The notes below the pieces were generated by a model. It made no database searches. It saw only the letters and a program-made list of their open reading frames with translations, and was not told the origin of the DNA. A DNA stretch of 60,268 nucleotides, counting the filler, from Sphacelaria rigidula (Eukaryota): NCBI GenBank assembly GCA_964200075.2. It is 2 parts of 2 records of this genome, joined end to end, with 100 filler letters (N's around TTAATTAATTAA, not from the genome) between each part and the next. Parts side by side here need not be neighbours in the genome. Positions count along the whole stretch, not along the records: positions 1 to 30,095 come from CAXNAA020000067.1; 1 more part is not named here. One strand, given 5' to 3'. This document shows, one piece after another, positions 10,301 to 48,338 of this stretch. A program made the position numbers and the translations under genes. The first letter of the stretch is position 1, and each line of letters opens with the position of its first letter.

Positions 10301-13300
10301 CGTTCTGTCGAATCAAGCAGTCAGCACGAGGACCAGGGCCGATGTGACAACATGAATCACGGGTGCTACGACCGGTCGCCCCGGTGGTTCAGCTCGTGAA
10401 CCTCGAAACCTTTTGACGGTTGGGTCGTGGGTTCGAATCTCGGTGCAGTAACACGATTTGAGATTTTTTCCACACACGAAGCCCAACAGTGGACAGCGAC
10501 CACGTCGTGGGCACACAAAGTTCGAATCCACGGTCGACGAGGGAAAGGAATTGCCGAACCCCTTTCGCGATGAAAAACAACGCAAGCACCGCAGAAGGTG
10601 GAGTACTGAAACAAAATGAACAACGCGAAAAAAACTCCTGAGTTGGCCTTCCCCCTGTGTGACCCACCCCGACTGATACATGCTGCGCCCACGTATACCG
10701 AAACTGCGCCCACATATACCGAAAGGTGTAGACCGGCGTCCGTAGTAAATGGGATAATAACTGAACGACAACCCGTGACTGCTTCGTGAGGAGCGCGAAC
10801 ATGTGCCGACCCATCATCGTGGAAACTTACCTCCGAGATCCACCACGCCGGGTAGGGTCGCATCTCCCGAAGCTTCCGGTACAGCTACGGTGGCGCTGAC
10901 GCCCGGCATAGACGCTTCTCCAGATACTTCCGGCACAGTCACATCAGCGCTCACGCCTGGAACAGACGCATCTCCGGAAACTTTCGGTACGGCGACATCA
11001 GCGCTCACGTCTTGCACTGGATTGTCAACGGAAACTCCCGGTAGAGGCACATCGCCGCTCACATCGGAACCCGTCACGTCAGCGTCCGGCATCTGCATCG
11101 TGTCGAGTCACAGGGGTCAGGAGAGGACGGAAAAGGTTACAAAAAAAAACACGACGCCCATCCGCGCCATGCGCAACGTTGACTTTGTTGTACGGAATTG
11201 AATATCATCTGTAAGCCGCAACCTGTTCCGGTCGTGTACCCCCGAAACGCACATGACACCATCGACTCAGCATAGAGAGCGGCTGCCGGGACACAAAACT
11301 GCACACTTACCTTCAACCCAGCCTTGACGGAGGGCTTCTTGAAGATTCCGCCGAACCCGAAGCCCTTCTTCCGCTTCTTCTCATCTACCGATGGGGCCTC
11401 GACGGAAATACTGGTGCCGGGCACCTGCTTCGGCACGCAACACACACAAAAGTACTCAAACTCGATGTCGGTACGTCGGACGGGTCTCACCGTCACTCAA
11501 TGCCGAACAATGTTCGCAATACGGCCTGACCGCGTCTGGTATTGGGGTCCGTCACCAATCACGTGCAAGGACGGAACCACGCAAGTTCCCACCTCGGGTT
11601 TGTCGCCCTTGCCCGCCAGGCTGCCCAGCCCAGCACCGACTGCGCCGACAGTCGCCGCACCCGCTGCCGCCAGACCCGCGGTCAAAGAGCTGTCTCCGGT
11701 CTTGATATCCACATCCGGTGCCTTCACATCTACATCACCCGATGGCAACGACACATCCGCATCTGCGGATACTCCCGTCGTGGGCACTTCTCCAGAGGGT
11801 AGGGAAACGTCACCCGATACTCCCGGAAGGGACACGCCGCCAGACGGCAGATCCACCTTGCCTGTGACTGACGGGACGTCGGCATCCACACCGCCCGAAG
11901 GCAGCGTGACATCAGCGCCAACACCCGGTACAGACGCATCTCCCGAAACATCTGGCAACGACACATCGCCGCTCACGCTCGGCACGGACACATCTGCCGA
12001 GACTTCCGGTAAAGCCACATTGGCGCCCACATCGGGAACCGCTACATCAGCGTCCGGCATCTGTATAGCAACGTCATGGGGACCAAGGGGAAAAGAAGAC
12101 ATCACCTCCTGACATGTCGCATCTCACGAACGCACGCCATGCACATCGCTGACACTTTTTCTCAAGCCATGAACCTCCTTCGGTGGTGTACGTCATTGCA
12201 CAACGGCGGAATACCATTGCATCACGTGAGTGAGGTACAGTAGTAGCAAAAAAAGACCCCTCATGATTGACCTCACTTCTTGTGTTTTTTCAAGACTTTC
12301 AGGGTTTCACGGGACCGGTAGACGAACAGCAGAAACGTTGTTTTTGACTGCAAGTGATCAGAGTATTTTTTTCAGGCGATAATCCCACGACGACAATTGT
12401 GCAGCGTTAATTACCTGAGCATCAAGCTTCCATCAAAAATATTTTTTCGGGCTGACAATCTCGCCGAACGAAATCGGGTACTGTTACGGGGGGTACTTGA
12501 ATGATGCCGACAGTATACACTGAAGGGAAGATTATCACAGATGAAATACCCGCCTTCCATCAAGGTAGACCCGGTAAGTTTTTGGCGCCGAAGCCGAAAT
12601 TGATGGAACATCAATGCGTGCGTTCAGCATCATTTCCAAGTAGCCTCCGCTACCTAGTGCGGTGCAGCCGCGGGCTTGTGTGCGAATGCATGAACTCCGT
12701 CTACACGACACACACAGTACTTGAGTTCAAAGCATGGTATGTTGACTTATGGGCCAATTGAGGGTGCGATGCAGTTAATGAAAAGCACTTGCCGCAGCAG
12801 TAGCTGCTTGCGGCCAACTACGTGACAGCTTGTACCTGCCCGTCTCGGCTCACCGAGCGAAGAATTGTGTTCAATTGTTCAGTTGTTCAAGCACAGAGGT
12901 TATCTGAATTGGAAACAACATGGCAGCGCCATCACCTCGAGAGAGCAACCACCAATGCCTGCACATGCATGTGGCAACATTGAAATGCAATGTCGTGCGC
13001 CGTTTTTCTGCCAAACCCATCCTGACAGCACGCCCACAATGATGAACCAGCTGCAGCTGAAGTAACACGCGAATCTCCAAAATCCCTACGCTTCCCAACA
13101 TTCGAGTTTCCCGGATGACTCGAGGCAGGCGTTAATACAAGAAAAAAAAACATACATTCGGCCTCGAGGCCAACATTTCTCCCATTACAACCCGGTGCAC
13201 GACGGCCGTGGCGACACGACCCAAACACTGACCTTCAACCCAGCCTTGACGGAGGGCTTCTTGAATATCCCGCCAAATCCGAAGCCCTTCTTCGGCTTTC

Positions 13301-16300
13301 TCTCATCGACCGCTGGCGTCTCAACGGAGATGCCGGCGTCGGGCGTCTGCTTCAGCAACATCACAAAAGCATTAAACTTGAATTAGGGCAAGTTGGGCCT
13401 GTCTCATATACAGCTCCGTACCCCGTAATGCCGATCACAGCGCTGGAAACGTCCCTGGCACTGTGTGCGGCAACACCGTGTCTCTACGAGCTACATCTGT
13501 GTTGACACACAAGGTGGACAGTGGCGCGCAACAAATAAAAATATCCGAACGACCCTACCCGCGTCAGCTCCCAGTCTCCACAAAACCACGTATCACCCAG
13601 CGTCTTACGTTTCTTGTGCCCAGCCCTGTAGGCCTGGCAACGGCCCGACAAAAGAAGTCTTTGCGTGTACGCTTGCTGGCCTCCACACGCTCAACACAAA
13701 AGAGATGAGCACAACTCGAACAGTAAGCACCGCAGGCACATTCGTCTATCGGTTCGCGACAGATGCCACACGTTGGCGAAAGGCTTCATGACCACCCCTT
13801 CACCGGTAACGATAACACCTCGCATAGCCCTACCTCAGGCTTGTCGCCCTTGCCCGCCAGGCTACCCAGCCCGGCACCGATCGCGCCCACAGTCGCCGCT
13901 CCCGCTGCGGTCAGACCCGCGGTCAACGAACTATCCCCGGTCGTGTTGTCCACATCTGGTGCCGTCACCTCCACGCCGCCCGACGGCAACGACACATCAG
14001 CGGTAATGCCTGGTACAGCTGCATCTGCCGACACGCCCGGCATGGACACCTCTCCAGACGGAACGGAAACGTCGCCAGATGGCAGATCTACCTTGCCTGT
14101 CATCAATGGAGCGTCCACGTCCACACCACTCGAAGGCAGCGTGACGTCAGCGCCCACACCCGGCATCGACGCATTTCCCGAGACTTCCGGTACGGACACA
14201 TCACCGCTCACAGCAGGCAAGGATGCATCTACCGAGGCTTCGGGGACAGACACATCCCCGCTCACATCGGAAACCGTCACGTCAGCGTCCGGGATCTGAA
14301 TGATATCGAGCGGCGGGAGTCGAATAACAGATAAGGTAAACTACGGGCATCACGCGAGAGTGTGCCACGCAAAACGCCCATCTTCTCGTGAGGGACGTAG
14401 CTCATCTTCAGCGGAGGCTTGCTCCGGCCCTGCACACGATCGCGGAACGCACAACAAAATCATCATGTCGACGCCACGGGGTATTCACGACGGCCATTGC
14501 GACACAAATCATACACTGACCTTCAACCCAGCCTTGACAGAGGGCTTCTTGAACATCCCGCCAAACCCGAAGCCCTTCTTGGGCTTGTTCACGTCTACCG
14601 ATGGGGTCTCGACGGAGACGCTGGCATCGGGAACCTGCTCCAGCGACGGCACGCAGAAGAGCAGTCAATTTTAATGACGCTCAGTCGGAGGGGGGATTCT
14701 GATGGACAGATCGGTACCTAGCAATGCTCTTGACAACGCTGTCCGGCAGCCTCCAGGACTGAATTTGGTTAATCAGCGACACACTGAATGAGAAACGATT
14801 TGCATTCCCGTGAGTAGCTCGCTCGCAGATAAAATTACATCCACCCCCATGTGCCCATGTCAGTTCCCACTCAACACGATCCGGCTAGCTTGAATCAAAT
14901 ATTGCCTGTGCTAACCATCTTTTTTCAGCACCCGGCCGATATCACAGTCCCTGCCAGCAATGAGTAGACCCACACATGCCCAACACATGCCCAACACATG
15001 GTATTTCTGAGATACCACCGCATACAGGAGAGCAGCAACAGCCCGAACAACAATCACCACAACCACAATCTGTTCCACAGCTTCACAAAGCTGCCAGAAA
15101 TGCATCCAACCAGTCACGTGAAACAACATCACCACATACAGCCTTACCTCAGGCTTGTCGCCCTCGCCCGCCAGGCTGCCCAGCCCGGCGCCGACCGCAC
15201 CCACAGTCGCCGCTCCCGCTGCGGCCAGACCCGCAGTCAACGAACTACCCTCCGTCTTCATATCCACATCCGGTGCCGTCACCTCCACGCCACCCGACGG
15301 CAACGACACATCCGCCGCCATGTCCGGTACAGCCGCGTCGCTGGACACGTCCGGGACGGCAACGTCCACCAAACTAGACGGCATGGCCGCATCTGTCGAC
15401 ACACCCGGCATGGACACCTCTCCAGACGGAAGAGAAACGTCACCCGATGCCGAGGGGAGGGAAACGTCACCAGACGGCAGATCCACCCCGCCTGTCATCG
15501 AAGGGACATCAACGTTCACACCGCCCGAAGGCAGCGTGACATCAGCGCCCACGTCCGGAACCGACGCAACTGCCGATACTCCCGGCGCAGACAGATCACC
15601 GCTCACACCCGGCAAGGACGCATCTGCCGAGACGTCCGGTAGAGACACATCGCCGCTCACATCGGGAACCGTCGCGTCAGCCTCCGGGCTCTAGATTGTA
15701 TCGAGGGATGGGGGTCGAAGAGGGACGGATAAGGTCAACACCGGACATTACGCGACGCATGCCACGCAAAACGATGATCCTGTTGTGAGGGATACCGCTC
15801 ACCTCCAGCGGCGACCATCGCGGAACGCACAACAATATCATCATGTCGACACGAAACACTGACCTTCAACCCCGCTCTGCCGGGGGACTTCTTGAATATT
15901 CCGCTTAACCCGAAGCTGCTTTTTTTGGGCTTCTTCACGTCCACAGATGGGGTCTCGACGGAGACGCTGGCATCAGGCACCTGCTCGAGCGACAGCCCAC
16001 AAATCAAATTAACTCAATTTCGAGTTAATTTGGTCGGGTGAGTCTCGTATAACTCGGTATTGACCAAAACTCTTCGCAACGCTGCCAAGTCGGCTACAGC
16101 ACTGACGTCGGTAAACAAGTAACTCCGAGTTATTTGTGTTTGGACACATCAAGAGGACATGTTGCACTCTTTGGCGACGGTGCTCCTGCCAGCTCATACT
16201 AGACGCTCCCGCTAGCAAGCGTCAGTTCTGGTGTCACGTGCCAAGCCCAGCAGACACGGCAACGGCCCGAAACAACAAGCATCCATCGGTACGCCAGTTT

Positions 16301-19300
16301 GCCCACACGCCAATACACACGGGGATTCCCGAATATACTGGCCACGGGACAGCGACAACAGCTCGACCAACTACATAAACAATCTGCTCACGGTTGATAT
16401 AACGGTTACACCTGCGCGACAAGACCTCTCACCACTACTACACCAAGCCAGTAACCGGTAACGACAACACCACATACAGCCCTACCTCAGGCTTGCCGCC
16501 CTTGCCCGCCAGGCTACCCAGCCCGGCGCCGACCGCGCCTGCAGTCGCCGCTCCCGCTGCGGCCAGACCCGCACTCAAAGAGCTGCCCTCCGTCTTCATG
16601 TCCGCATCCGGTGCCGTCACCTCCACGCCGCCCGACGGCAAAGACACATCTGCCGACACTCCTGGCATGGACACCTCTCCAGACGGGAGAGAAACGTCAC
16701 CCGATACCGAGGGGAGGGTAACGTCGCCAGACGGCAGATCCACATTGCCCGTCATCGACGGAGTGCCTGCGTCTACACCGCCCAGAGGCAGCGCAACGTC
16801 AGCACCCATGGCTGGCACCGATGCATCTGCCGAGACTTCCGGTACGGAAACATCGCCGCTCACATCGGGAACCGTCACGTCAGCCTCCGGACTCTGGATC
16901 GTATCGAGCGACGGGAGTCGAAGAGAGACGGATAAGGTCAACACCGGACATCACGCAACGCGTGCCACGCGAATCGCCAACGCTGTTGTTCAGGATACGG
17001 CTCACCATCAGCGAAACGCACAAAAAAATCGTCATGTCGACATGAATCAGTAATCATGACGGGTATGGCGACATAAAACAGACACTGACCTTCAACCCAG
17101 GTCTGCCGGGGGACTTCTTGAATATCCCGCTGAACCCGAAGCTGCTTTTTTTGGGCTTCTTCACGTCCACCGATGGGGTCTCGACGGAGACGCTGGCGTC
17201 GGGTGCCTGCTTCAGCAACAGTCCAAAGAAAAAAAATAATCGGTCCCAATGACGCTGGGTCGAGTGGGTCTCCTGTATTTCAGGATATCTACTAATGTCG
17301 GTACTCTACCGGCAAAACATCGACAAAATAGATGCTGCACTAGCATCTTCGAGACAGGAGTGGGGCTGAGTGTTGGGTCAGGATCCCTCCTTCAAGGAAA
17401 AGTATATGTATATATATATTATATATTGTCGTTCGCAATGGGCTTCTCAAATGTCACGGGTGGGCATCAGGCACCTCCTGTACGTTGTTGCTTCCGCTGC
17501 AAGAATTCTTATTTCGGAAAAGCATAATCTCATGATCTCTCACACCTGCCACACCGGCGACAAGACTTCCCAACACAGCTACACCGGGCCATTAAACGGT
17601 AACGACACCACAGACGTCTGTACCTCGATCTTGTCGCCCTTGCCCGCCAAGCCGCCCAGTCCGGCCGCGCCCACAGTCGCCGCTCCCGCTGCGGCCAGAC
17701 CTGTAGACAACGGACTGCCCTCCGTCTTGATGTCTACATCCGGTGCTGTTACCTCCACGCCGCCCGACGGCAACGTCACATCCGCCGCCACTCCTGGCAC
17801 AGGCGCACCGCCGAACACATCAGGCACAGCAGCATCCACCTCTCCAGACGGGAGAGAGACGTCACCCGATACCGAGGGGATGGAAACACCACCAGACGGC
17901 AGATCCACCCCCCCTGCCATAGGAGCGACATCCACGTCGACGCCACTCGAAGGCAGCTTGACATCTGCGCCAATGGCTGGCACCGACACATCTCCCGAGG
18001 CTTCTGGTAATGACACATCGCTGCTAACACCGGGAACCGTCATATCAGCGTCCGGCATCTGTACACCATAAAGCCAAGAGGTCCCGCGGAGACAGAAACA
18101 GTCAATACAGGAAGTGATGCGTTTGCGAGGAATGCGAAATGATCATGGTTTCATCTCCGATGTAGTTCTAGTCAACTGTAGCGTTCGCATACGTCATGGC
18201 ACAGCGTGCGTGCTACCCTCGTATCGAGTCCATGCGGTGTGCAAAAACACGAGGACACGAGCCACACTAACCTTCGACCCAGCCTTGAAAGAGGGCTTCT
18301 TGAACATCCCCCCGAAACCAAAGCCCTTCTTCGGCTTCTTCACGTCTAGCGATGGCGACTCGACGGAGATACTGGCATCGGGCACCTGCTTCAGCATCGA
18401 CGTGACAACATCATGCAGCCAGAAGAAATAGTGGCTCAGCGGTCGGCAATGATATCGCAACGGTGGCCAGTTTCCGCCATAACTGAGGGCGGCAACACCG
18501 TGCCTCTCTCCGAACTCTCCATCATCGACATACCAAGAAGGGAATCATCTTGCCCTCTTCAGAATAGATCCAATATGGAAATATGGCCAACACGTCATAT
18601 TAGCTTTGGCGCGCACACATGTCGCATTACAGTTGTCCGTCGAGTTCACCCACATTCAGCCATCTCTCCAATGCCAAGTCATCTTCACCCGACATCAACC
18701 CGGGACAACAATAGCCTCCACCAATACTTGGGGATCATCAGGTAAACGTTCAACACACGAGCTTTGCGACAAATACCATCAGCGGGACAACAACCAGTTC
18801 AGCCGAAGCACAAGCGTGAAGTGCTCTTGATTCTCACAACCTGCGCGACACTGCCAAGAGACCTCCCTGCATTCAACAGAACGGGTCAGTTACCGATAAC
18901 GACAACACCACACATATCCTCACCTCAGGCTTGTCACCCTTGCCCGCCAGACTGCCCAGCCCGGCGCCGACCGCGCCCACAGTCGCCGCTCCCGCTGCAG
19001 CCAGACCTGTAGACAACGAACTACCCTCCGTCTTGATATCCACATCCGGTGCCGTCACCTCTACACCGCCCGACGGCAATGACACATCTGCCGCCATGCC
19101 CGGCACAGCCGCATCGCCGGACACAGCAACGTCAACAGAAGCAGACGGCATAGAAACATCTGCAGACACGGCAGGCACGGGTACCTCTTCAGAGGGAAGA
19201 GAAACGTCGCCAGGGGGCACATCTACATTGCCTGCCATCGGAGGAACGCCCACGTCCACACCGCCCGAAGGCATTGTGACATCACCGCTCACACCCGGCA

Positions 19301-22300
19301 AGGACGCATCTGCTGAGACTTCCGGCAAAGAAACATCACCGCTCACACTAGGAACGGTTACATCAGCGTCCGGCACCTGAGTGAAATCGAGTCGCAGCGG
19401 CAACCAGAGACGGGAGAGGTCAAACACGGTTATCCCGCATACGCGTGATGAGCGCACCGCTGAATCCTTTGAAACTACTCCGTCATCTCCAGCAACAATT
19501 TGAACAACTCGAATAATGAGTAGTCTCTATACTACCTACTTTTAGTGTAATCGAATCATGCGGTACGAATCAATCCTTGATCTTTGATTTCAGCATTGCA
19601 TCCCAGGTGCATGCACCTCAGGTACGTGAAATAGAGCAAAGTTTGCCCAGAGACTTTCCCGACCCGCAGCCAACTGTTCCCCTCTTTCGAGCACTCAGGC
19701 CCTAAAAATCGTACATCAGGTGATTCGATCCAGCTATGATTCATCCGACCCTTGAACTTGTTCCAGCCAACAACTTTGCGTCACAAGTAAAACATATATG
19801 TTGAGTCGTTGCAGTATGAAGAGCGGCAGTTGGTGGGCAAACTACAAACTGACCTTAAACGCAGCCTTGCCGGAGGGCTTCTTGAACATGCCGCCAAATC
19901 CGAAGCTCTTCTTCGGCTTCTTCACCTCCAGCGATGGCGACTCGACGGAGACACTGGCATCTGGCATCTGCTTCGAAACACAAACGGGTCATAGCAGCCA
20001 GCTTGAATAAGGATGAGTTAAATGAGCCTCGTGAACAGCTCAGGACCTGCCATTGCTATTTGGAACTCTACCCGGCTGCCTCAAGCACTGGAAGGGGCCC
20101 GACAGATTGTCTTCAAACCCACGGTGTATAGCAGGTCAAGACGATAACATTCCATGTACGGAGTAGGTCGGAATGATTTTTACAGCACAACAGATGTGCT
20201 AACGTCTACCACTATTCCTACGGTCCAGTCGCCATCTCGCTAGAGCCTAGTCTCTCCAATGAGCAGTAGGTTGAAGCTGACTTAATCATCACACAGCGAC
20301 AGCCCTCACGAGGACGCAAGTTCAGTCACACATCCTGAGCTCCGAGGTTTCCACAAAACAAGGAAACTTGGTACAGGAATGACAGCTCGAACGAGAGGGT
20401 ACCGAACGCAACCTCCTACCGGTTCGTTACACCCCCTCTCTCCCTGCTTGAAGCCCTTACGACCAACACTACACCGAGCCACCAACCGGCAACGACAACA
20501 CCACATACAGCCCTACCTCAGCTTTGTCGCTCTTGCCCGCCAGGCTGCCCAGCCCGGCGCCGACCGCGCCCACAGTCGCCGCCCCCGCCGCGGCCAGACC
20601 TGTAGACAACGAACTGTCCCCAGTCTTGATGTCCACATCCGGTGCCGTCACCTCCACGCCGCCCGACGGCAACGACACATCCACCGCCACGTCGGGCACA
20701 GCAACATCGGCGGAACCCGACGGCGCACCCACATCTGCCGACACTCCTGGCATGGACACCTCTCCAGATGGGAGAGAAACATCACCTGATACCGAGGGAA
20801 GGGAAACGTCGCCAGACGGCGGGTCCACCTTGCCTACCATCGACGGAGCATCCATGCCCACACCGCCCGACGGCAGCATGACATCAGCGTCTACACCTGG
20901 CACCGATCCATCCGCCGAAACTTCCGGCACGGACATATCACCGGTCACAGCCGGCAAGGACACATCTACAGACGCTTCTGGGACAGACACATCGCCGCTG
21001 ACATCGGGAACCGTCACGTCAGCCTCCGGGCTCTGGATTGCATCGGGCGACGGGGGGCGAGGGGGGAATGAATGAAGGCGACTACAGATTTGACGCATAC
21101 GCGCGCCATGTATTGCGCTGAGACTATGTTTGAGGAATACGGCCCGTCTACAACCGCGACCGGTCTTGGTTTTTGATATCATGGTAGAACGCGTGAAGTA
21201 CATGCTGCCGAGTTGACGTGATGAGGTCGTATAGAGATAAACTAGACACTGACCTTTAACCCAGCTTTGGCGGAGGGCTTCTTGAAGATTCCACCAAACC
21301 CGAAGCCCTTCTTCGGTTTCTTCACGTCTACCGATGGCGACCCAACGGAGATACTGGCATCGGGAACCTGCTTCAGCACGACATACATATATTGCAATAG
21401 CGGCGAACTCAAAGAATGACAAAAAAAGTACGGCTCACGCACGATCATGTACTGAGCAGTGCTGTTCGTGATACGTCTGGACTGTCTCCTGAAACTGAGG
21501 TCGGCCATACAGTTAGATACATGCCCGCTTTACGATGCGGAGGTGCATAGGCACTAGAGGGGGGTGGGGGGGGGGTCCTTTCTTGATGGCCAACGTGGAA
21601 TTCCTCTCCCCTTGATAGCCTGAAGCTCCCCAGCCGTTTCATCCGGCATTCAACAGCCTCACCAGCCGGTTCCGCATAGCACAGGGGAGAACAAACGCTG
21701 CTAACACGACGTCGTGTCAATTCTGTCTTTGCATCGACAACTCAAGTTATTGGTGCAACGGAGGGTACCACAAAAGTACAGAGGGTGAAATGGGGATCCT
21801 GAAAGCCGAGGCCTGAACCTCACGGTTTGAAACGTGTGATGGGCCGATTGTGCCCCTGCGACTCGGTTCGATTCTTGACGTATTTCTCCACCCATTCGTC
21901 TCCAACCAAACGGAGCAGATCTATAGGACAGCTAGTCATGGAACTGACGTGATGACACATCTCTCTACGGTATTGTTTGTCCAGTGCACTCCTGTTTACT
22001 GATCTGGCTTAACTATAGTGTGCCGGCTGCTACGCCGATCGCAGGATACGGTGCTCGCCGACGAAGACGCACCGAACCCAAGCAAAACATCCGAAATTTT
22101 GTACCTACAATGATTAGCCGCAGTCTTCACCTTGTTAGGCGGGGACCGGTTAATTAATTGCCTCTGATCGCACCGACTACGGAAAATACTGTGAGCTCTG
22201 TTTGCTGCGCAAATATCGCGGCAGAAAGACTTACTGGGATACCACCCATCTCTTGGCGCGCTGTCACACAGGAGAAAATGTTGTTGTTTTTGACTTTGAA

Positions 22301-25300
22301 ACAGCTCAGTATAACCCGATACTGAACCTCACAACTCGGTGTGTGCACAGAGACCTTATCCAAGTTCCAATCCAAACCACTTTAGAGCTACTGCAACTGA
22401 TGGAAGGCTGCGGAAATTATTCGAGACCCGCGGCGTGTTGAAATAAACCTGCGCTCAAGACCCGCGGTGTTCAACTCGTCTTTGCACGAAACGGTATTAA
22501 GCTAGGCTACTAAACTCTCTAGTGAGTTTGACATGGAAAAAATCAGCCAAAGCCGAAACAAGGTATTTACAAGACACCGACAACGGAACAATGACTACAG
22601 CTCGGCAACACGCACGACAAAACCAATCTGCTTATGGTTCGTGATTCACCACTACAAACCGCCAAGAGGCTTTATAACCACTGCTAGACCGGACCAGTAA
22701 CTGGTAACGACAACACCACATACAGCCCTACCTCAGGCTTGTCGCCCTTGCCCGCCAGGCTGCCCAGCCCGGCGCCGACCGCGCCCACAGTCGCCGCTCC
22801 TGCTGCGGCCAGACCCGCGCTCAAAGAGCTGCCCTTCGTCTTCATGTCTACATCCGGTGCCGTCACCTCCACGCCGCCCGACGGCAACGATACATCTCCC
22901 GGTATGTCCGGCACGGTTGCATCACCGGACACGTCCGGGACAGCAGCGTCCACCGAACCAGACGGCAACGACACATTTGCATCTGCCGACACTCCTGGTA
23001 TGGAAACCTCTTCGGCGGGAAGAGAAACGTCACCAGATGGCAGATCCACCTTGCCTGTCATGGAAGGTATATCTACTTCCACACCGCCCGAGGGCAGCGT
23101 GACATCGGCGCTCACGTCTGGCACCGACGCATCTGCCGAGACTTCTGGTAAAGACACATCGCCGCTCACATCGGGAACCGTCACATCAGCGTCCGGCATC
23201 TGGGTCGCATGAAGTCATGGAAGCCGAGAGGGACGAGGTGCGAAAGAAATAGTCACCAACGGAAGACGAACACCATCGTTCCGCGTGCAACATTGACCTT
23301 GTCGTACATGACACAAGAATTTTACAGCGGAGAAATGTTGCGGTTGTTCACACCCTTACTTCAGGCGTCGAGCGCCATCGTATCGACTCGATTCGGTATA
23401 CACCAAACACCACGACAACAAAAATGATGCCCTCACCTTCAACCCAGCCTTGACGGAGGGCTTTTTGAAAATACCACCGAACCCGAAGCCCTTCTTCGGC
23501 CTTTTGACGTCCAGCGATGGCGACTCGACAGAGACGCTGGCGTCAGGCAGCTGCAACAGCAACGTACACACACGACAGCAGCCGAAGACGGCGAGCGACC
23601 GGTTGATTTTCGATGTACAACTCAATACCCAGCGTTCATGTTGGCATTGCTACCCGGCTGCCTTCTGCGCTACAAGCGGCAACACCCTGCCTATTTACAA
23701 GCTCTCCTCTGTCCGACACAGCACGATCACATCCGCTCGCGCGATTCAAATTAGCTCGCAAAAAAAATATTAAAAAAAAAGTCCAGCGCATCTGTCCGAA
23801 CAAAACGACTACGAGTCAAATACACGGTGTTCTGAGCACCCTGACAAGACCAGTCTACAGGAGTACCCGAGTTCACCCTCAAACGCGAAGTGTACTTGGT
23901 TTTCCAGAATTCCATCTATGGAACAGCAACCGCAGCTCGGAGAGCAAAGTTACTACCGAATCCTAAAACCCTGCTGCACAGTCAAAAGGCTTGGCCATGT
24001 GTAACAGCACTACATACAGCCCTACCTCAGGCTTGTCGCCCTTGCCCGCTAGGCTACCCAGTCCGGCACCAACTGCACCCAGAGTCGCAGCTCCCGCTGC
24101 GGCCAGACCCGCACTCGAAGAACTGTCCTCCGTCTTCATGTCTACATCCGGTGCCGTCACCTCCACGCCGCCCGACGGCAACGACACATCCGCTGCCACG
24201 TCGGGCACAGTAACGTCACCCGATACTGACGGAAGAGAAACGCTGTCAGAGGGCACATCTACCTCACCCGTCATCGAAGGAACGTCCACATCCATACCCC
24301 CCGAAGGCAGTGAGACATCAGCGCCCATGCTCGGCAGGGACACATCTGCGGAGGCTTCCGGTAAAGACACATCTCCACTCACGGTCGGCAGGGATGCATC
24401 TGCCGAGACATCCGGTACAGACGCATCGCCGCTGACATTGGGCACCGTCACATCAGCATCCGGCATCTGAAATTGTATCAAACGACGGGGGGCAGCGAGT
24501 GATGGGGTTGTCAATTATGGACACCACGCACACGAGCACCGCGCGCAGCGCAAAACGTTTTGTACGTCTAGCTTTTTGCACCAACGTGTTCGGTTGTTCA
24601 CACTTGTGCCTCAAGCGTCTCTCGAGAGCCGTTGTGCCGAGTCCACGCAGTATGCAGATGGCTCTCGGGACACAAACCACAGACTGACCTTCAACCCGGC
24701 TTCGACAGTGGGCTTTTTGAACATCCCACTGAATCCGAAGCTCTTCTTCGGCTTGTTCACGTCGAGCGACGGCGCCTCGACGGAGATGCTAGCATCGGGC
24801 ACCTGTTTCAGCAGTAACATACACAAATCCAAAACCACTCAAATCAACAAGGGATATCCGGTTCCGATTTGTGGCACTCGTTATACACCGCCGCTGCGGG
24901 TAAAATTACCCGACAACCCCTACAGCTAGGGGCGGCCAAACTATGATCTACAAACTTCGTCACGCTGGACACACCACGATGACATCACTTGTCACCAGTT
25001 TCTCTCGAAATAGGATTACAGCCAAGCGGTCACTTTGTCACTTGACAGTCACAAATAAACAGTCGACAGTCAGATACACTCCCGAGATGTCGGTACCCAC
25101 CCGGGAAGACTCGGCAGTAGGGCGAGACAATCAACAGTCCGAACGCGAACGCAAGTTCACCCCCACACACCGAACCCACGGGATTTCCGATACAAGATAT
25201 CCGTGAAACAGTGCAGACAGTTCAAACAAGCACAACTAGCGCCACAAGATCAATCCTCTACCGGTACGGAAGACCCTGTTACACACCGCCAAGGATCATC

Positions 25301-28300
25301 ACGACCAATACCACACAGTGTCAGTCACGCGAAACGACAACACCACATACAGCCTTACCTCAGGCTTGTCGCCCTTGCCCGCTAGGCTGCCCAGCCCGGC
25401 GCCGACCGCGCCCATAGTCGCCGCCCCTGCTGCGGCCAGGCCTGCAGTCGACGAACTGTCCCCGGTCTTCATGTCCACATCCGGAGCCGTCACCTCCACG
25501 CCGCCCGATGGCAACGACACATCCGCCGCCACGTCGGGCACAGCCGCATCTCCGGACACGTCCGGGACAGCAACGTCCACCGAACCAGACGGCAAAGCCA
25601 CATCTGCCGACACTCCCGGCACTGATACCTCTCCAGAGGGGAGAGACGCATCGCCAGATGGCAGATCCACCTTGCCCGTCATTGAAGGGACGTCTACGTC
25701 CACACCGCCTGAGGGCAGCGTGACATCAGTGCCCACGCCTGGCATGGACGTATCTCCCGAGACTTCGGGTACGGTAAAGTCAGCGCCCAGGCCCGGCACG
25801 GAAGCATCCACCGAAACATCTGGTAAAGACACATCGCCGCTCACGCTCGGCAAGGATGCGTCCGCCGAGACTTCCGGTAAAGACACGTCGCCGCTCACAT
25901 CGGGGACCGTAACATCAGCATCTGGCATCTGTAAAGCGAAGACGGCCGTCGGAGTTGGGAGAGTGATCAACTACGAATATTACGTACACGTGGACCACGC
26001 GCAGGGCTTGCACTGTTCACGGGAGTGTTCGCTCCACATTGTGACTGTTTCGATTGTGAACACCATGTATACTTGCACGAAATATCACAACAGCCGTGCG
26101 GAGACAACCGTGCTGACCTTCAACCCAGCCTTGCCGGAGGGCTTCTTGAACATCCCGCCAAATCCGAGACCCTTCTTCGGCTTTTTCACCTCTAGCGATG
26201 GCGACTCGACGGAGATGCTGGCATCGGGCACCTGCTCCGGCAAGCACACGAACACGCGGAAGTCCATTTCAGTAAGAGTGATCCGGGTGAGCCTCATGCA
26301 TAAACTCAGTACCGAGCCATGCTGTTCACAATGCTGCTTGGACGCCTCGTGGACTGGGGTAGGTCACACAGTTCAATGCGAGCTCGATTTACAATCGGGG
26401 GTGCGTGGGTAATGTTGGGATGGAGAGGGGGGGAGGGGGGTGCATGAGCTTTCCATGACGTGAACTCGCTTGTGTCCTTCTCTGACTGCTTTGCGCCTCA
26501 CTTGCTGGGTAAGGCCACACCGGACAGTTGTGCAACCAACAGGCGTGAAGGACAAACTGCCAGCAATACCTTTCATTCTTTTCCTCGTATCAACAATAAA
26601 ATGACATTCACAGCCGTCTAGATAATCAGTTGGAATCACGCCAGCACCGAAGCACCCACATGAAACAGGAGTATCGACTGTCGAGGTCTGGTTGCATACT
26701 GCGAAGGCTAGCGCATTGGTTTCGAAAGGGTCACAATATGACCCTACCTTACGGCCGCCGCCAATTCGGAATTCCTGTGCTGCGGATGTTGGAGAGCTAA
26801 TTTATGTTTGCGTGTCTACGTATGACTCCTCGTAAAAACTGCAATGGAATATTCGCAAAATCATCTCGTAGCGCCCAAGAACCTTGCGTAGGTTGCGGGT
26901 ATCTCCGGCGTGCGAACATATTCCTACAAGACAGTCACGATGTGACCCCCGTAGCAAGTGATTTCACGTGGAAGCCGCCTTATAAACTTGCGGGTAGACG
27001 CCCACTCCATGAGGCACTACGCTTATGAACGTGGATTCATGGAGTGAACTTTGAGGTCGCTGTTCAATACTGATCAATATCCCCTGCTTCCACCGGTGTC
27101 TTGGGGTTGCCGGGCTATATGGGAATACAGGAACGTTCAAAATACGGTAGAACCGATAGAAATTTCGTTGTACTGGACACTGATGATCTCAACTTCGAAT
27201 CTCTCAAGTAGGACGGGGAAAAGTGTGAACATGGAACTGATTGATATGATTGAGTCATTGTCGTACTTCAACTGATCCCCCAAGGGTCCAGTCGTGGTAA
27301 CACGTATTGTAGACAAAACTAGAAATGTAGCAAGAATATTCTCCACGATGGTCCACGAGGTCTTACTTCTTTCCTTTGCACGAGTAAGGCCAACTTTCAT
27401 TAGGTTACAGATTTTCGCTGAATTAATTTTTGTGTCAAACAATCCAATCGACCCTCATGTCGAGGTGCCGAACCCAACCTTGCAACAACCCATATCCTCC
27501 AACACACAGCAACGATCGGAGTCGGCACGTTTACATGACGTTCAGATAAACCTACCGAAGCAGCACGTGATGGCTTGAGGTACACTTGTAACGACACTAC
27601 ACACAGGCCTACCTCAGGCTTGTCACCCTTGCCCGCCAGACTGCCTAATCCGACCCCGACTGCGCCGACAGCCGCCGCTCCTGCTGCGGCCAGACCCGCA
27701 GTCAACGAGCTGTCCTTCGTCTCGATGTCTACATCCGGTGGCGTCACCTCCACACCGCCCGACGGCAACGACGCATCCGCCGCAATACTGTGCACAGTCG
27801 CATCTGACGACACTCCTGGCACATCTACATCAACCGAACCGGACGGCAGATCCATCTGCCCTGCCATCGAAGGGACCTCCACATCCACACCACCCGAGGG
27901 CAGGTTAACATCAGCGCCAACGCTCATTTCCGGCACGGATGCGGCGGCTGGGCCTTCCGGCAAAGAAACATCACCGCTCACATCGGGAACTGTTAGCTCA
28001 GCGTCCGGCATCTGCATCGTATCAGGTTATGAGGGCAAGCGAGGACATGAAAAACTCAGGATGGGAAATAGCGCATTTGACAGCCATGCCCAATGCTGGC
28101 AATTCCGTACAAGGTGGACGTTGTCTCAAACCGCGACCTGTTGCGATCGTGTGTACGTCAATGGAGCTCCCACCGCCGTGTCAACTCGACGGAGTATGCA
28201 CAAAAGCTATCGGAACAATCGACGCACTCTGACCTTCAAACCCGCCTTCACGGAGGGCTTCTTGAAGATCCCGCCGAACCCGAAGCCCTTCTTCGGCTTC

Positions 28301-29964
28301 TTCACGTCTACCGATGGCGACTCGACGGAGACGCTGGCATCTGGTACCTGCATTAACGGCGACACAGACATGATACCTAACTTTAACGAAGGTAACCCGG
28401 TTGAGATCCAAATACAGCTCCGAACCGAGCAAAGCTGTGCGGTACACCACGCAGCTGCCTCCAGCACTAGAAGCGGCCACACACTGACCCTCTCCAAGCA
28501 TCGTCTTAGTAACACCAAAAATAAGATCGACTTGCATGCGGACGGGTAGCTCGACTACAACGAAATACTCAAGCATCCGCTCATAGGTTCTTGAAACGGT
28601 GGTCGGTGAGCTACACTCGTGCGTATTCGTGTTGAACCATGTATACCAATCTTTGTGCCGACCAAAAAGCGTCACCGAGTAGGCAACTTTACCTGCCCAC
28701 ACGCAGCCCATCGAGTTCCCGGGAAGCACCGCTTGCGATACAAATCAACAATTTGAACACCCACGACAATTACAGTCTCTTCTTCAATTGTGAGACCCAA
28801 TCAAAGTCTTACCACAGGCTTCAAAGACTGATACTACACAAAGCCGGTCACGTGTGACGGTATCACACACATCCTCACCTCAGGCTTGTCGCCCTTGCCC
28901 GCCAGACTGCCCAGCCCGACGCCGATCGCGCCCACAGTCGCCGCACCCGCTGCTGCCAGACCCGCGGTCAGAGAACTGTCTCCGGTCTTGATATCTACAT
29001 CCGGTGCCTTCACATCTACGTCGCCCGACGGCATCGACACATCCGCATCTGCCGACACCCCCGGCATCGACACATCACCAGACGGCAGATCCACCCCTCC
29101 GGTCATCGAAGGGGCGTCTACGTCCACGCTACCTGAAGGTAGCGTGACGTCAGCGTCCACGCCCGGCAGGTTTGCCCCTCCCGAAACATCTGGCACTGAC
29201 ACACCGCCGCTCACGCTCGGCAAGGACGCATCGGCCGAGACTTCCGGTGAGGAAGCATCGATACTCACGCCAGGCGAGAACGCTTTTGAGCCCGGAGCCT
29301 GTCGGTTCAAGCGGAGAACATCGAAGATTGAATTCAAGGGCACAGCGGTGACTTTACAACATCATCGAGGATCGTGCTCAGATGGACGATGAGTTCAGTG
29401 GATCATGCACGGCAAAAGCTCCCAGGAGAATGTGCAGAAATCCTGCGTGGGGTTGGGAGGGCGCCATGCTTGCGCAAGTTTTTTTCACATTCAAGTCGCG
29501 GTATGAAGGGTGTTGCCCCGAAATATGCCACATCTCAAACTAACGGTGACGACAAAACGAATTGCCCCGAAAACGCTCCTCCCGCAAGTGTTGTGAACGG
29601 CCCCAGGTTTGTCACGTTCGGTGATCGGTTGTTCGAGCAAGCGGGTATAGACTTGCATCCCCTGCTGGTTCGTCTTCCTCATCCACTATGTATCTCTCGC
29701 AGTCTGTCAAAACTGGTGTAGCCCACAGCACCTACAAACCTCCAGCGGGAAGCTTTCTTACCTGTGTGTCCCCCTTGCTACCCAGCTTTAGCATCCCGCC
29801 GACTGCGGCGGCTCCCGCCGCAGCTCCCGCCGCTATACCGCTCGCAAGACCAAGCTTCCCGCTGTCCCCTTCTGCGGAAACACCCGGGGCAGTTACGTCC
29901 AGATCGGCGGAGGGCAGCTGACCCTCAATGTTCACAGACGGACCCTGGGGGGCTTTCACCTCGT
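4072..29964 (-). CDS. Giant multi-exon gene (34 exons visible, 5'-incomplete, at least 3196 aa): acidic Pro/Val/Asp/Ser/Gly repeat protein with 12 A/B modules, compositionally AHNAK/periaxin-like, function unknown
   Basis: Hand-built GT-AG model, 5' to 3': 29762-29964, 28879-29298, 28234-28347, 27613-28011, 26118-26231, 25359-25928, 24689-24802, 24026-24466, 23437-23550, 22732-23199, 21254-21367, 20517-21032, 19854-19967, 18924-19376, 18272-18385, 17624-18058, 17090-17206, 16486-16893, 15864-15980, 15148-15690, 14521-14634, 13834-14295, 13233-13346, 11593-12060, 11311-11424, 10831-11092, 9691-9963, 9232-9408, 8450-8649, 7644-7817, 6909-6993, 5634-6377, 4896-5179, 4072-4305. Total 9593 nt = 2 + 3x3197. 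All phases join and there are no internal stops. Confidence 0.85.
4896..5179 (-). CDS. Exon of giant repeat gene (APAPAAAVTTEEAAPERGPGFFERIIDAVEDVAE...GSGEQ)
   Basis: Acceptor ttgtacag phase 1, donor CAG/gtgact phase 0; donor choice less certain. Confidence 0.7.
5634..6377 (-). CDS. Exon of giant repeat gene (ASKAEGEASGG...RFNLKFLFG...EEEQEE)
   Basis: Acceptor aaatcag, donor G/gtcagt, phase 1-1, 744 nt, acidic low-complexity ORF. Confidence 0.8.
6909..6993 (-). CDS. Exon of giant repeat gene (SSDPEDAQKSGAEATGVGAPDSGKEGAG)
   Basis: Acceptor acatcag, donor A/gtgagt, phase 0-1. Confidence 0.75.
7644..7817 (-). CDS. Exon of giant repeat gene (STSPGAAPTGG...GIGFGFGRLSGGGAKRK)
   Basis: Acceptor caaacag, donor AAG/gtaaac, phase 0-0; this frame is not shown in the ORF track. 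Confidence 0.75.
8450..8649 (-). CDS. Exon of giant repeat gene (MSATAPSV...GRFFSRLIGRKKK)
   Basis: Acceptor gtgacag phase 1, donor AAA/gtgaga phase 0. Confidence 0.75.
9232..9408 (-). CDS. Exon of giant repeat gene (HSDDSSAPSAKAVSG...APTVEG)
   Basis: Acceptor tcatcag, donor G/gtaagt, phase 1-1. Confidence 0.75.
9691..9963 (-). CDS. Exon of giant repeat gene (ALQGAIEAQTPEEPDAESPEMGG...GAVSTA)
   Basis: Acceptor tgagcag, donor G/gtgagt, phase 1-1. Confidence 0.75.
10378..10770 (+). mobile_element. tRNA-derived SINE, near full length, in an intron of the giant gene
   Basis: Head with A box TGGTTCAGCTC (10385) and GGGTCGTGGGTTCGAATC B-box region (~10422-10439). The body recurs inverted at 46956-47191, 48021-48338 and 52656-52716. 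Confidence 0.75.
10831..11092 (-). CDS. Truncated 13th A-type repeat exon (MPDADVTGSDVSGD...VVDLG), lacking the hydrophobic segment
   Basis: Acceptor gatgcag phase 0, donor G/gtaagt phase 1. Confidence 0.85.
11311..11424 (-). CDS. B exon, module 12 (VPGTSISVEAPSVDEKKRKKGFGFGGIFKKPSVKAGLK)
   Basis: 114 nt, phase 0-0, AG/GT boundaries. Confidence 0.9.
11593..12060 (-). CDS. A exon, module 12
   Basis: 468 nt, phase 0-0, MPDADV...GKGDKPE. Confidence 0.9.
13233..13346 (-). CDS. B exon, module 11
   Basis: 114 nt, phase 0-0, TPDAGISVETPAVDERKPKKGFGFGGIFKKPSVKAGLK. Confidence 0.9.
13834..14295 (-). CDS. A exon, module 11
   Basis: 462 nt, phase 0-0. Confidence 0.9.
14521..14634 (-). CDS. B exon, module 10
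   Basis: 114 nt, phase 0-0. Confidence 0.9.
15148..15690 (-). CDS. A exon, module 10
   Basis: 543 nt, phase 0-0, TAG acceptor. Confidence 0.9.
15864..15980 (-). CDS. B exon, module 9 (117-nt KKSSFGLSGIFKKSPGR variant)
   Basis: 117 nt, phase 0-0. Confidence 0.9.
16486..16893 (-). CDS. A exon, module 9
   Basis: 408 nt, phase 0-0. Confidence 0.9.
17090..17206 (-). CDS. B exon, module 8 (117-nt KKSSFGFSGIFKKSPGR variant)
   Basis: 117 nt, phase 0-0. Confidence 0.9.
17624..18058 (-). CDS. A exon, module 8
   Basis: 435 nt, phase 0-0. Confidence 0.9.
18272..18385 (-). CDS. B exon, module 7
   Basis: 114 nt, phase 0-0. Confidence 0.9.
18924..19376 (-). CDS. A exon, module 7
   Basis: 453 nt, phase 0-0. 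Confidence 0.9.
19854..19967 (-). CDS. B exon, module 6
   Basis: 114 nt, phase 0-0, MPDASVSVESPSLEVKKPKKSFGFGGMFKKPSGKAAFK. Confidence 0.9.
20517..21032 (-). CDS. A exon, module 6
   Basis: 516 nt, phase 0-0. Confidence 0.9.
21254..21367 (-). CDS. B exon, module 5
   Basis: 114 nt, phase 0-0. Confidence 0.9.
22732..23199 (-). CDS. A exon, module 5
   Basis: 468 nt, phase 0-0. Confidence 0.9.
23437..23550 (-). CDS. B exon, module 4
   Basis: 114 nt, phase 0-0. Confidence 0.9.
24026..24466 (-). CDS. A exon, module 4
   Basis: 441 nt, phase 0-0. Confidence 0.9.
24689..24802 (-). CDS. B exon, module 3
   Basis: 114 nt, phase 0-0. Confidence 0.9.
25359..25928 (-). CDS. A exon, module 3
   Basis: 570 nt, phase 0-0; the longest A exon. 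Confidence 0.9.
26118..26231 (-). CDS. B exon, module 2
   Basis: 114 nt, phase 0-0. Confidence 0.9.
27613..28011 (-). CDS. A exon, module 2
   Basis: 399 nt, phase 0-0. Confidence 0.9.
28234..28347 (-). CDS. B exon, module 1
   Basis: 114 nt, phase 0-0. Confidence 0.9.
28879..29298 (-). CDS. A exon, module 1 (divergent start APGSKAFSPG)
   Basis: 420 nt, phase 0-0, acceptor ccgacag. Confidence 0.85.
29762..29964 (-). CDS. Most 5' visible exon (EVKAPQGPSVNIEGQLPSADLDV...GIAAGAAAGAAAVGGMLKLGSKGDTQ), a divergent A-like unit
   Basis: Acceptor aacacag phase 1 (so an upstream exon must exist), donor CAG/gtaaga phase 0. Confidence 0.75.
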
Positions 29965-30095
29965 CTGTGTTTGGGTCAACAGCATAGAGAGGCAGGCTAT
30001 TTTTCAAACTTCGGATATCTCATCATACCACGGTTAGGACAAATAATGAGTCGTCACGAAATTACTTGGTTTTAGTATAGTAAGTTGACTCGTGA

Positions 30096-30195
30096 NNNNN
30101 NNNNNNNNNNNNNNNNNNNNNNNNNNNNNNNNNNNNNNNTTAATTAATTAANNNNNNNNNNNNNNNNNNNNNNNNNNNNNNNNNNNNNNNNNNNN
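30096..30195. other. Assembly gap with artificial TTAATTAATTAA linker
   Basis: N runs flanking TTAATTAATTAA at 30140-30151. Confidence 0.9.
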
Positions 30196-39058: not shown

Positions 39059-39454
39059 ACTTTTTCCACGCGAAAACTCTAAAACGACGATGCGCCACTC
39101 ATTTTCTCAGGGCTTAGAGTGGAACCTCGGCACCAGAGAAACCGCACTCAGACCTACCTTGTCCCGAATCTAGCCCCTTCTTTTTCTCTCTCTCGCTTGA
39201 GGGATTTGAAAATAGTCCAACAAATCGAATCGCCCAATAAAGTTCGGGTGATTTTTTTTTAGAAGGCCGAGGTCGTAACACGATAGGCCCAAGTGATGGT
39301 GCATAGATTTGCTGCACGCCAATACTATGCTACCAGCCCACTACGGTAATAATTAATGCATTCGATACCCTACTCAGCGCAACACCGTGGTACAGTGGTG
39401 AACGGACACTATGGTAGACGAAGAGACCGGAGCTCAGTACACTTGACAGCCACG

Positions 39455-39926
39455 CAAACAAAACACACGCCAGGCACGACGGCACGGGATCTCCGCTGAG
39501 GGAATGAGGAAGACATTTGTTTCGAAAACTCAATAATACAGTATTTTAATCCCAGGTATCCACGCCTGAGAGGATACCGTATCATGGATCGTCTACCCAT
39601 CGCACTCTGTTCGCTTCAGCTCGAATACATCCCGAAATGTGGCGAGTAGGGTGGGAGGTTCAACGCACGGGATAATGCGGCTGCAGCCTGCAAACAAAAC
39701 ACACGCCAGGCACGACGGCACGGGATCTCCCCTGAGGGAATGAGGAAGACATTAGTTTCGAAAACTCAACAATACAGTATTTTAATCCCAGGTATCTACG
39801 CCTGATAGGATACCGTATCATAGATCATCTACCCATCGCACTCTGTTCGCTTCAGCTCGAATACATCCCGAAATGTGGCGAGTTGGGTGGGAGGTTCAAC
39901 GCACGGGATAATGCGGCTGCAGCCTG
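39455..39926. repeat. Tandem duplication, 2 x 236 bp
   Basis: 39455-39690 and 39691-39926 differ by only a few substitutions. Confidence 0.9.
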
Positions 39927-46955: not shown

Positions 46956-47191
46956 TGTGTGTGTGTGTGTGTGTGCGTTGTCCCATCTGTTCTGGACGCC
47001 GATCTACACCTTTCGGTATATGTGGGCGCACCAGCCGAGGTCACAGAGGAGGAAGGTCAACACGTTTTTGTTTCTTTTTTATTTGTTTTCAGTACCCGAC
47101 CTTCCTTCTGCGGTGCTCGCCTTCTTTTTTTATTGCGAGAGGGGTCCAGCAGTCCCTTTTCGTCGTCGACCGTTGAGTCGAATTTCGTACC
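46956..47191 (-). mobile_element. 5'-truncated SINE copy with (CA)n tail
   Basis: Matches the 3' part of 10378-10770; (TG)n on the plus strand at 46956. Confidence 0.75.
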
Positions 47192-48020: not shown

Positions 48021-48338
48021 GTGTGTGTGTGTTGTCGTCCCATCCATTCTGGACGCCGGTCTACACCTTTCGGTATATGTGGGCTCATCAGCCGGGGTCA
48101 CACAGGAGGAGGGTCAACACAGGGGCTTTTATTTTTATTTTTTTTAGTACCCCACCTTCATTCTGCGGTGCTTGCCTTTATTTTTTTTCGCGAGAGGGGT
48201 TCAGCAGTCCCTTTCCCTCGTCGACCGTCAAGTCGAATTTGTGTACCCACGACATAGTCGCTCTCCACTGCTAAGTATGGTGTGAGAAAAAATCCCAGAT
48301 CGCTCTGAGAATGGGATCCACGACCCAACCGTCAAAAG
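48021..48338 (-). mobile_element. SINE copy truncated inside the tRNA head, (CA)n tail
   Basis: Matches ~10410-10770; possible TSD GCGCGTG at ~48017 and ~48338. Confidence 0.8.

Follow-up and report, generated by a model that had tools for sequence, protein, structure and literature searches.

Why should every exon of a long repeat array begin and end in the same phase? Such exons could exist to be spliced in different combinations, or their symmetry could be what tandem duplication leaves behind. The question is raised by a gene in the brown alga Sphacelaria rigidula (assembly GCA_964200075.2), in a stretch of 60,268 nucleotides made of two joined parts and referred to here as the window (positions 1 to 30,095 come from CAXNAA020000067.1). 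On its minus strand the coding signal runs from 10831 to 29298, and two exon types, A (399-570 nt) and B, follow each other in turn, 12 of each. A first-pass annotation had proposed that these exons serve as a platform for combinatorial splicing or as a length ruler. Our analysis favours a simpler account: an expressed tandem array of A-B pairs, whose symmetry is a by-product of duplication, whose exons are spliced in order and whose product would be a multivalent scaffold. As a whole, we give this explanation a probability of about 0.7.

The exon structure itself is clear. Exon borders were set from conserved AG/../GT sites and the reading frame (Table 1). All 24 module exons have a length divisible by 3, are preceded by AG and followed by GT, contain no stop and are phase 0-0, the lengths and phases being as the first-pass annotation had described; B exons measure 114 nt in 10 of 12 cases, and B8 and B9 measure 117 nt. 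The limits it gave to the array also stand, 29298 being the acceptor of A1 and 10831 the donor of a last, truncated A-like exon (A13). When the 24 exons are joined to A13, they give 7219 nt with 2406 open codons across 25 exons, which are separated by 24 introns of 168-1381 nt. One module (A plus B) corresponds to 171-228 residues. Exon A starts directly 3' of a ..cag acceptor, has GAG/gt as its last letters and reads ..LPSGGVEVTAPDVDMKTEGSSLTAGLAAAGAATVGAVGAGLGSLAGKGDKPE at its end; the head of A1 is atypical (APGSKAFSPGVSID...). Exon B starts 3' of ..gaagcag, ends in AAG/gtcagt and reads VPDASISVESPSLDVKKPKKGFGFGGMFKKPSVKAGLK.

How much does this uniformity say about splicing? As copies of one A-B pair, the 24 exons do not supply 24 independent phases; what counts is the phase at the borders of the unit and at its inner intron. 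Since the frame must be kept, a tandemly duplicated unit begins and ends in the same phase. This leaves one thing free to vary, the phase of the intron between A and B inside the unit: a single event with odds of roughly 1 in 3. The symmetry is not more than chance would give, and the exon structure is ordinary: duplication of a phase-0 exon pair yields symmetric copies automatically. Length changes in multiples of 3 are demanded of any translated exon, skipped or not. The first-pass annotation had added, as a hedge, that symmetry is a precondition for tandem duplication. This is the better-supported reading.

The best reading of the symmetry is that it was inherited from one ancestral A-B pair, with the length of A changing in frame through a 9-residue sub-repeat. 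The locus is an expressed minus-strand gene whose middle is a tandem array of 12 two-exon modules and one truncated copy. Tandem duplication of the ancestral pair, with its three introns all in phase 0, gave every copy its 0-0 symmetry. A-exon lengths later drifted in frame, with the old copies each held by purifying selection. We infer that the symmetry is a by-product of array growth by unequal crossing-over and not a splicing device.

Splicing could be followed in assembled contigs over 10500-30050. Runs X6 and X7 were treated as RNA-derived on account of their spliced joints (X6-X9 are otherwise only guessed to be RNA), and X3 and X5 are DNA-like runs. A joint was countable when it had 31 letters on both sides. 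Among the joints listed, 13 of the 24 predicted consecutive junctions were matched to the base in X6 and/or X7 contigs, with anchors of 43-116 nt: B1-A2, B2-A3, A4-B4, B5-A6, A6-B6, B6-A7, B7-A8, A8-B8, B8-A9, A9-B9, B9-A10, B10-A11 and A12-B12. Their gaps end CT..AC on the plus strand, which is GT..AG on the gene strand, and their depth is 0 in both X3 and X5. For three further junctions, short overhangs fit (A7-B7 and B12-A13) or placement is ambiguous (A11-B11). All 13 countable joints listed fall between neighbours and none is a skip. The in-order spliced form is present in the RNA contigs; this does not imply that other forms are absent, as contigs lose rare variants. Depth in X6 and X7 is zero in three bins (12456-13107, 21584-22235 and 26800-27451), which were not used as evidence.

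The copies are old and have been kept as coding sequence. By the Nei-Gojobori method, the ratio of nonsynonymous to synonymous divergence (dN/dS) between modules is 0.18 for A tails (55 pairs, dS 0.41), 0.23 for A heads (55 pairs, dS 0.62) and 0.18 for B exons (45 pairs, dS 0.57), with A8 (tails), A1 (heads) and B8 and B9 (B) left out for indels or atypical sequence. DNA identity between modules is 75-92% for B exons and 79-93% for A tails. The A-to-B introns are 38-60% identical and the B-to-A introns 42-64%, save the three after B8, B9 and B10 (75-83%); the identities of the diverged introns are near the level of unrelated sequence in such alignments. From dS values of 0.41-0.62, dN/dS of 0.18-0.23 and mostly diverged introns, it follows that the copies are old and that each has been maintained as coding sequence. 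The introns after B8-B10 mark a younger duplication, which is also the source of the two 117-nt B exons (92% identical).

Within exon A, a shorter repeat accounts for the variation in length. Identity is 0.40 at lag 9, 0.38 at lag 18 and 0.36 at lag 27, and inside A exons Tandem Repeats Finder reports periods of 27 and 54 nt. The lengths of A are congruent modulo 27 in 6 of 12 copies, and in the alignment the length differences fall in blocks of the 9-residue sub-repeat. At the two edges of the array, the tails of A1 and A12 have a variant in common (SGDVDVKAPDVDIKTGDSS) and are 90% identical to each other, compared with 79-87% to the inner copies, which lack the variant. This edge pattern is usual in arrays shaped by unequal exchange.

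Three other explanations deserve weight. One is that the symmetric exons serve regulated combinatorial skipping, which would set protein length and the number of hydrophobic segments and basic patches. The arithmetic behind this proposal of the first-pass annotation is right, since with all 24 exons 0-0 any subset can be skipped in frame. Its precedent is also sound: passages of PMC11378527 describe alternatively spliced, symmetric 72-bp leucine-rich repeat (LRR) exons in brown-algal ROCO genes, with up to nine splice variants. What did not hold up is the step from possible to used, as we see no reliable sign that this gene uses skipping. Every well-anchored joint listed (13 of 13, anchors of at least 43 nt) is consecutive, and the two apparent skips have anchors in sequence common to several modules. 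In one of them (13346/22732, apparently A5 to B11) the anchor measures 30 nt, and A5 and A11 end in the same 30 nt; we rejected it as the ordinary A11-B11 junction put on the wrong copy. In the other (26231/28879, apparently A1 to B2) the anchor is a 24-nt string common to A1, A3, A4, A5 and A11 and one mismatch from A2. Being in shared sequence and below the 31-letter rule, it was rejected as evidence of skipping; it may be the A2-B2 joint from a strain that differs silently here, a path through k-mers common to several modules, or a genuine skip. Purifying selection on every module is unexpected for exons that are often left out, and phase symmetry that all copies took over from a single duplicated unit does not point to selection for skipping. 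We therefore consider regulated skipping as the purpose of the array unlikely. Given the limits of contigs, low-level or regulated skipping may still occur.

A second explanation places the variation in DNA and not in RNA: unequal crossing-over would alter module number or A length between strains or species, with selection acting on the result and splicing being constitutive. The closeness of the edge copies A1 and A12, the younger block around B8-B10 and A lengths that differ by multiples of the 9-residue unit all fit such exchange. So does a hybrid contig in X5 with an A6-type head and an A1-type body, of the kind that unequal exchange leaves. Yet dS of 0.4-0.6 and diverged introns make most copies old, the hybrid may be a paralogue or a graph error, and all three of the between-sample indels listed are intronic, none being exonic. 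In X3, another sample, we found no joints and only intronic indels among those listed; its contigs, at most 1375 nt long, would collapse repeats and give no firm word on module number. This explanation is possible and, on balance, doubtful. Finally, the array could be no real gene at all, only decaying repeat or transposon-derived low-complexity sequence with open frames by chance. It has a low-complexity composition and no Pfam family, as this would predict. However, 2406 open codons over 25 exons, spliced RNA contigs, dN/dS of about 0.2 and relatives in Ectocarpus speak against it; the open frame, contigs and dN/dS refute it, and we give it next to no chance.

Several observations pull against the preferred account of an in-order, by-product array. 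The apparent A1-B2 joint has a GGC variant that is missing from A2 of the window, so that it is not letter-for-letter an A2-B2 joint; A2 may differ between strains, or the skip may be real. Contigs drop rare isoforms and break at 31-mers shared between modules, each phasing at most one full junction, and 11 of the 24 junctions are without good anchors among the joints listed. The hybrid X5 contig (588 nt; 28875-29254 and 20994 onward) runs from an A6-type intron and head into an A1-type body; its 36 added letters and an overlap of 12 nt amount to a net gain of 48 nt, which keeps the frame. It may come from a paralogue, from another allele or array in another sample, or from an assembly error, and elsewhere, whether in another strain or a paralogue, modules may differ in order or number. 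The distances of neighbouring A and B exons do not co-vary in Mantel tests (r -0.05 and -0.12; not significant), so they do not trace the history of unit duplication.

The start of the A-to-B introns also counts on this side. Regulated splicing is often marked by conserved intron flanks, and the first 30 nt of these introns are conserved: ungapped identity is 0.75 over nt 1-15, 0.58 over nt 16-30 and about 0.27 further in. Conservation among modules is visible over the first ~45 nt (gtagggctgtatgtggtgttgtcgttacc.., for example at 22731-22687, 20516-20472 and 16485-16441). Translated in frame, the intron start yields a hydrophobic tail, V(G/R)LYVVLSLPVTG.., and in 9 of 13 copies a stop comes next. 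The conserved stretch may act as a signal for splicing, or it may encode the last residues of a truncated protein made when the intron is retained.

What would such an array encode? Exon A is an acidic stretch of 9-residue sub-repeats resembling VSGDVSLPD, closed by LPSGGVEVTAPDVD and a Gly/Ala hydrophobic segment of 25 residues (TAGLAAAGAATVGAVGAGLGSLAG). Exon B is a basic-aromatic patch of 38 or 39 residues (..DVKKPKKGFGFGGMFKKPSVKAGLK). The array carries a net charge of -188 over 2406 residues and is rich in V, G, S, A, D and P; lysine makes up 5.6% overall and is confined to B. Over a 19-residue Kyte-Doolittle window there are 12 hydrophobic peaks of 1.4-1.8, borderline for a membrane helix. 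In an AlphaFold2 model, exon A has no secondary structure (pLDDT, the model's per-residue confidence score, 49), and the array protein is predicted to be largely disordered. No Pfam family scored above threshold in A, in B, in the flanking open reading frames (ORFs) or in 149 other ORFs, and a sequence search of the PDB gave 0 matches. Toastrack/DUF4097 and T2SSN were rejected as weak Pfam scores below the cut-offs.

The protein may be a long multivalent scaffold that would bind a membrane or an acidic surface through two elements per module, a weakly hydrophobic segment and a polybasic/Phe patch. The acidic linker, of adjustable length, would space these binding modules. This function is tentative. 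If all 12 segments spanned a membrane, successive ones would alternate sides and the basic patch would lie on the wrong side every second time, so the segments more probably touch the membrane peripherally or re-entrantly than cross it 12 times. MARCKS-type effector segments combine clustered Lys with Phe, a pairing found in peptides that adhere to acidic membranes; exon B (KKPKKGFGFGGMFKKPSVK) is like them in composition only. A membrane-scaffold role is putative and is one more point on which the preferred account could fail; the protein may instead have a cell-wall or Ca-binding role.

Relatives of the array were sought with a profile of the 12 A exons, which matches 641 proteins. The top ones have 4-7.5 thousand residues and 20-70 matched stretches; these giant matches were classed as AHNAK-type by composition, motifs and named matches only. 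Closest among the named relatives are unnamed proteins from Ectocarpus fasciculatus (P0151, 1202 aa, partial) and Ectocarpus sp. 12 (P0102); vertebrate AHNAK and AHNAK2 come next. P0151 matches an A exon at 47% identity and the unnamed fragment P0041 does so at 68%, and a second protein search, for lengths near that of the query, returned 6 unnamed fragments. Five proteins (P0151, P0102, P0110, P0119 and P0148) share the order of the module: acidic PDVS repeats, a ..VTAPDVKVEGGDTSLTAGLAAGG.. segment, GDKP and a ..SVDVKKPKKGLFGG.. basic patch. The same order (PDVS repeats, TAGLAA(A/G)G segment, GDKP, KKPKKG-F-G patch) is present in all 12 modules here. The TAGLAA(A/G)G motif occurs in 5 of 161 fetched proteins, all of the brown-alga type. 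The Ectocarpus proteins differ in that their sequence is diverged, the B part is a few residues longer and the models are partial, with read-through intron pieces.

The likeness to AHNAK goes beyond composition. An AHNAK of Callorhinchus matches with an E value of 5e-27 (34% identity over 76% of an A exon), and BLASTP gives 7e-11; both sides have the motif DV.LPS..V.V.APDVD in common, followed by a basic/Phe patch. The likeness depends on residue order: 60 shuffles average 0.3 bits and reach at most 11.4, against 36.7 bits for the best single stretch. Profile alignment with hhalign gives a probability of 96.6% (E 6e-10), and 95.8% (E 7e-9) when colinear, figures to be read with the caution that HH-suite probabilities are generous for periodic low-complexity sequence. 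The resemblance in residue order is real, and convergence is as likely as descent.

The differences are equally plain. AHNAK repeats are built on a 7-residue period. Three AHNAK-type matches have period 7; the modules here have period 9 and run to 171-228 residues. Lysine makes up 9-14% throughout the AHNAK matches and is limited to B in our array. The Gly/Ala hydrophobic segment, present here, is in none of the 11 AHNAK-type matches listed. Passages of PMC10682155 put the repeat unit at ~128 residues in AHNAK and ~165 in AHNAK2, and place AHNAK repeats in one giant exon after an N-terminal PDZ domain. In contrast to this single exon, the array has two exons per module and 25 exons, with 13 introns RNA-confirmed among the joints listed. 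One AHNAK match (P0154) scores PDZ in Pfam. Outside the array, no PDZ or other Pfam domain was found at E <= 0.001 in 149 stop-to-stop ORFs of at least 85 aa, a search that short exons would escape and that leaves the 5' end of the gene unmapped.

Other systems with exon arrays place the locus in context. Titin PEVK and nebulin-type exon arrays have documented differential exon use. Like them, the gene has a long in-frame array of repeat exons and would encode a giant extended protein whose length skipping would alter; their documented differential use sets them apart. Closer to home, brown-algal ROCO-LRR and NB-ARC-TPR genes also have tandem symmetric repeat exons that expanded by exon duplication (PMC11378527; PMC3341825). 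In the former source each ROCO LRR is one 72-bp exon in phase 2 per repeat, with diversifying selection and splice variants. Unlike these repeats of known fold on a single phase-2 exon, the array has two phase-0 exons per module and is under purifying selection.

Beyond the array, the gene continues downstream and, by prediction, upstream (Table 1). In X6 and X7, 255-letter loose ends leave the A13 donor at 10831, and their 30 listed letters match 9934-9963; the gene therefore continues downstream, and the next exon is entered in phase 1. The statement of the first-pass annotation that non-repeat exons are mostly phase 1 holds at the two borders checked, the 3' end of A13 (RNA-supported) and the start of a predicted upstream exon, A0 (by eye), and extends no further than these. 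A13 has no hydrophobic segment. A0 has a Gly/Ala hydrophobic segment, no B exon after it and phase 1 to 0.

Table 1. Exons of the array and its immediate flanks in the window, listed from the 5' end of the gene (joints as position/position)
Feature	Position	Strand	Length and phase	Support
A0, predicted divergent upstream A-like exon	29762..29964	-		ORF and splice sites by eye
A1	28879..29298	-	420 nt, phase 0-0	AG..GT, no stop; acceptor predicted only
B1	28234..28347	-	114 nt	B1-A2 joint 28011/28234 in X6 and X7, anchor 66 nt
A2	27613..28011	-	399 nt	RNA contigs over 27616-28011; joint to B1
B2	26118..26231	-	114 nt	B2-A3 joint 25928/26118, anchor 116 nt
A3	25359..25928	-	570 nt (longest A)	RNA contigs over 25385-25928
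B3	24689..24802	-	114 nt	AG..GT, frame; no specific RNA joint among joints listed
A4	24026..24466	-	441 nt	A4-B4 joint 23550/24026 in X6, anchor 114 nt
B4	23437..23550	-	114 nt	AG..GT, frame; joint to A4
A5	22732..23199	-	468 nt	X6 contig over 22861-23181
B5	21254..21367	-	114 nt	B5-A6 joint 21032/21254, anchor 116 nt
A6	20517..21032	-	516 nt	Joints to B5 and B6
B6	19854..19967	-	114 nt	Joints 19967/20517 and 19376/19854
A7	18924..19376	-	453 nt	B6-A7 joint, anchor 91 nt
B7	18272..18385	-	114 nt	B7-A8 joint 18058/18272, anchor 86 nt
A8	17624..18058	-	435 nt	Joints to B7 and B8
B8	17090..17206	-	117 nt	Joints 17206/17624 and 16893/17090
A9	16486..16893	-	408 nt	Joints to B8 and B9
B9	15864..15980	-	117 nt	Joints 15980/16486 and 15690/15864
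A10	15148..15690	-	543 nt, acceptor TAG	B9-A10 joint, anchor 47 nt
B10	14521..14634	-	114 nt	B10-A11 joint 14295/14521, anchor 116 nt
A11	13834..14295	-	462 nt	RNA contigs over 13969-14295
B11	13233..13346	-	114 nt	AG..GT, frame; upstream joint placed on A5 (A5/A11 last 30 nt identical)
A12	11593..12060	-	468 nt	A12-B12 joint 11424/11593 in X7, anchor 80 nt
B12	11311..11424	-	114 nt	Joint to A12; 14-letter overhangs to A13
A13, truncated A-like exon	10831..11092	-	262 nt, phase 0 to 1	Donor RNA-confirmed
Next non-repeat exon, start	9614..9963	-	Enters in phase 1	9614 is the open-frame limit, no mapped donor

Further acidic, Gly/Ala/Ser-rich open frames lie downstream on the minus strand at 9614-9963, 5626-6459 and 4812-5276, without a Pfam family; the latter two may be later exons of the same gene. 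Upstream, no non-repeat exon came up when the N-terminal 520 residues of P0151 and the C-terminal part of P0102 served as tblastn queries; all 14 rows were repeat exons. At 31727-32311 (minus strand) there is a 195-codon open frame with an ATG, an acidic stretch and KRRKK (MASRESQGNG...DSDDDTEDELFDVDRD...RAKRRKK), again without a Pfam family, which could be the first coding exon of the gene or a separate gene. The N runs at 30096-30195 lie just upstream of the predicted A0 and mask part of the 5' region of the gene.

The window also holds repeats and assembly features. A dispersed repeat at 10410-10760, in the intron after A13, includes a 21-nt tandem (10683-10724) and has copies on the opposite strand at 46978-47188 and 48038-48338 (72-89% identity). 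All four runs have very high contig depth in the bin 10500-11151, and loose ends are numerous at 10705 and 10741; this indicates that the repeat is a high-copy element. A 236-nt unit stands in two tandem copies at 39454-39926 (96% identity). N runs occur at 2277-2286, 30096-30139, 30152-30195, 50852-50861 and 55208-55217, and homopolymer G or C tracts adjoin N runs at 2199-2234, 54966-54991 and 55246-55298.

The main interest of the locus is its product, a giant brown-algal repeat protein that is expressed, conserved, very acidic and without a Pfam family. As arrays of symmetric repeat exons go, brown algae already have better-documented ones. As a putative AHNAK-like scaffold of brown algae, the gene family is undescribed and mildly interesting; full-text searches for AHNAK in brown algae or Ectocarpus turned up no paper on it and a single unrelated one. 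A bolder possibility, which we consider quite improbable, is that the array acts as a ruler of valency and length in a brown-algal AHNAK counterpart with shared ancestry, in which regulated skipping (perhaps through the conserved 30 nt) and/or unequal crossing-over sets the number of anchors and patches. If true, the AHNAK repeat family would extend far outside animals. Should descent from a common AHNAK ancestor hold, or should exon use prove to be regulated, the gene would be a tractable model for how repeat number tunes a scaffold protein.

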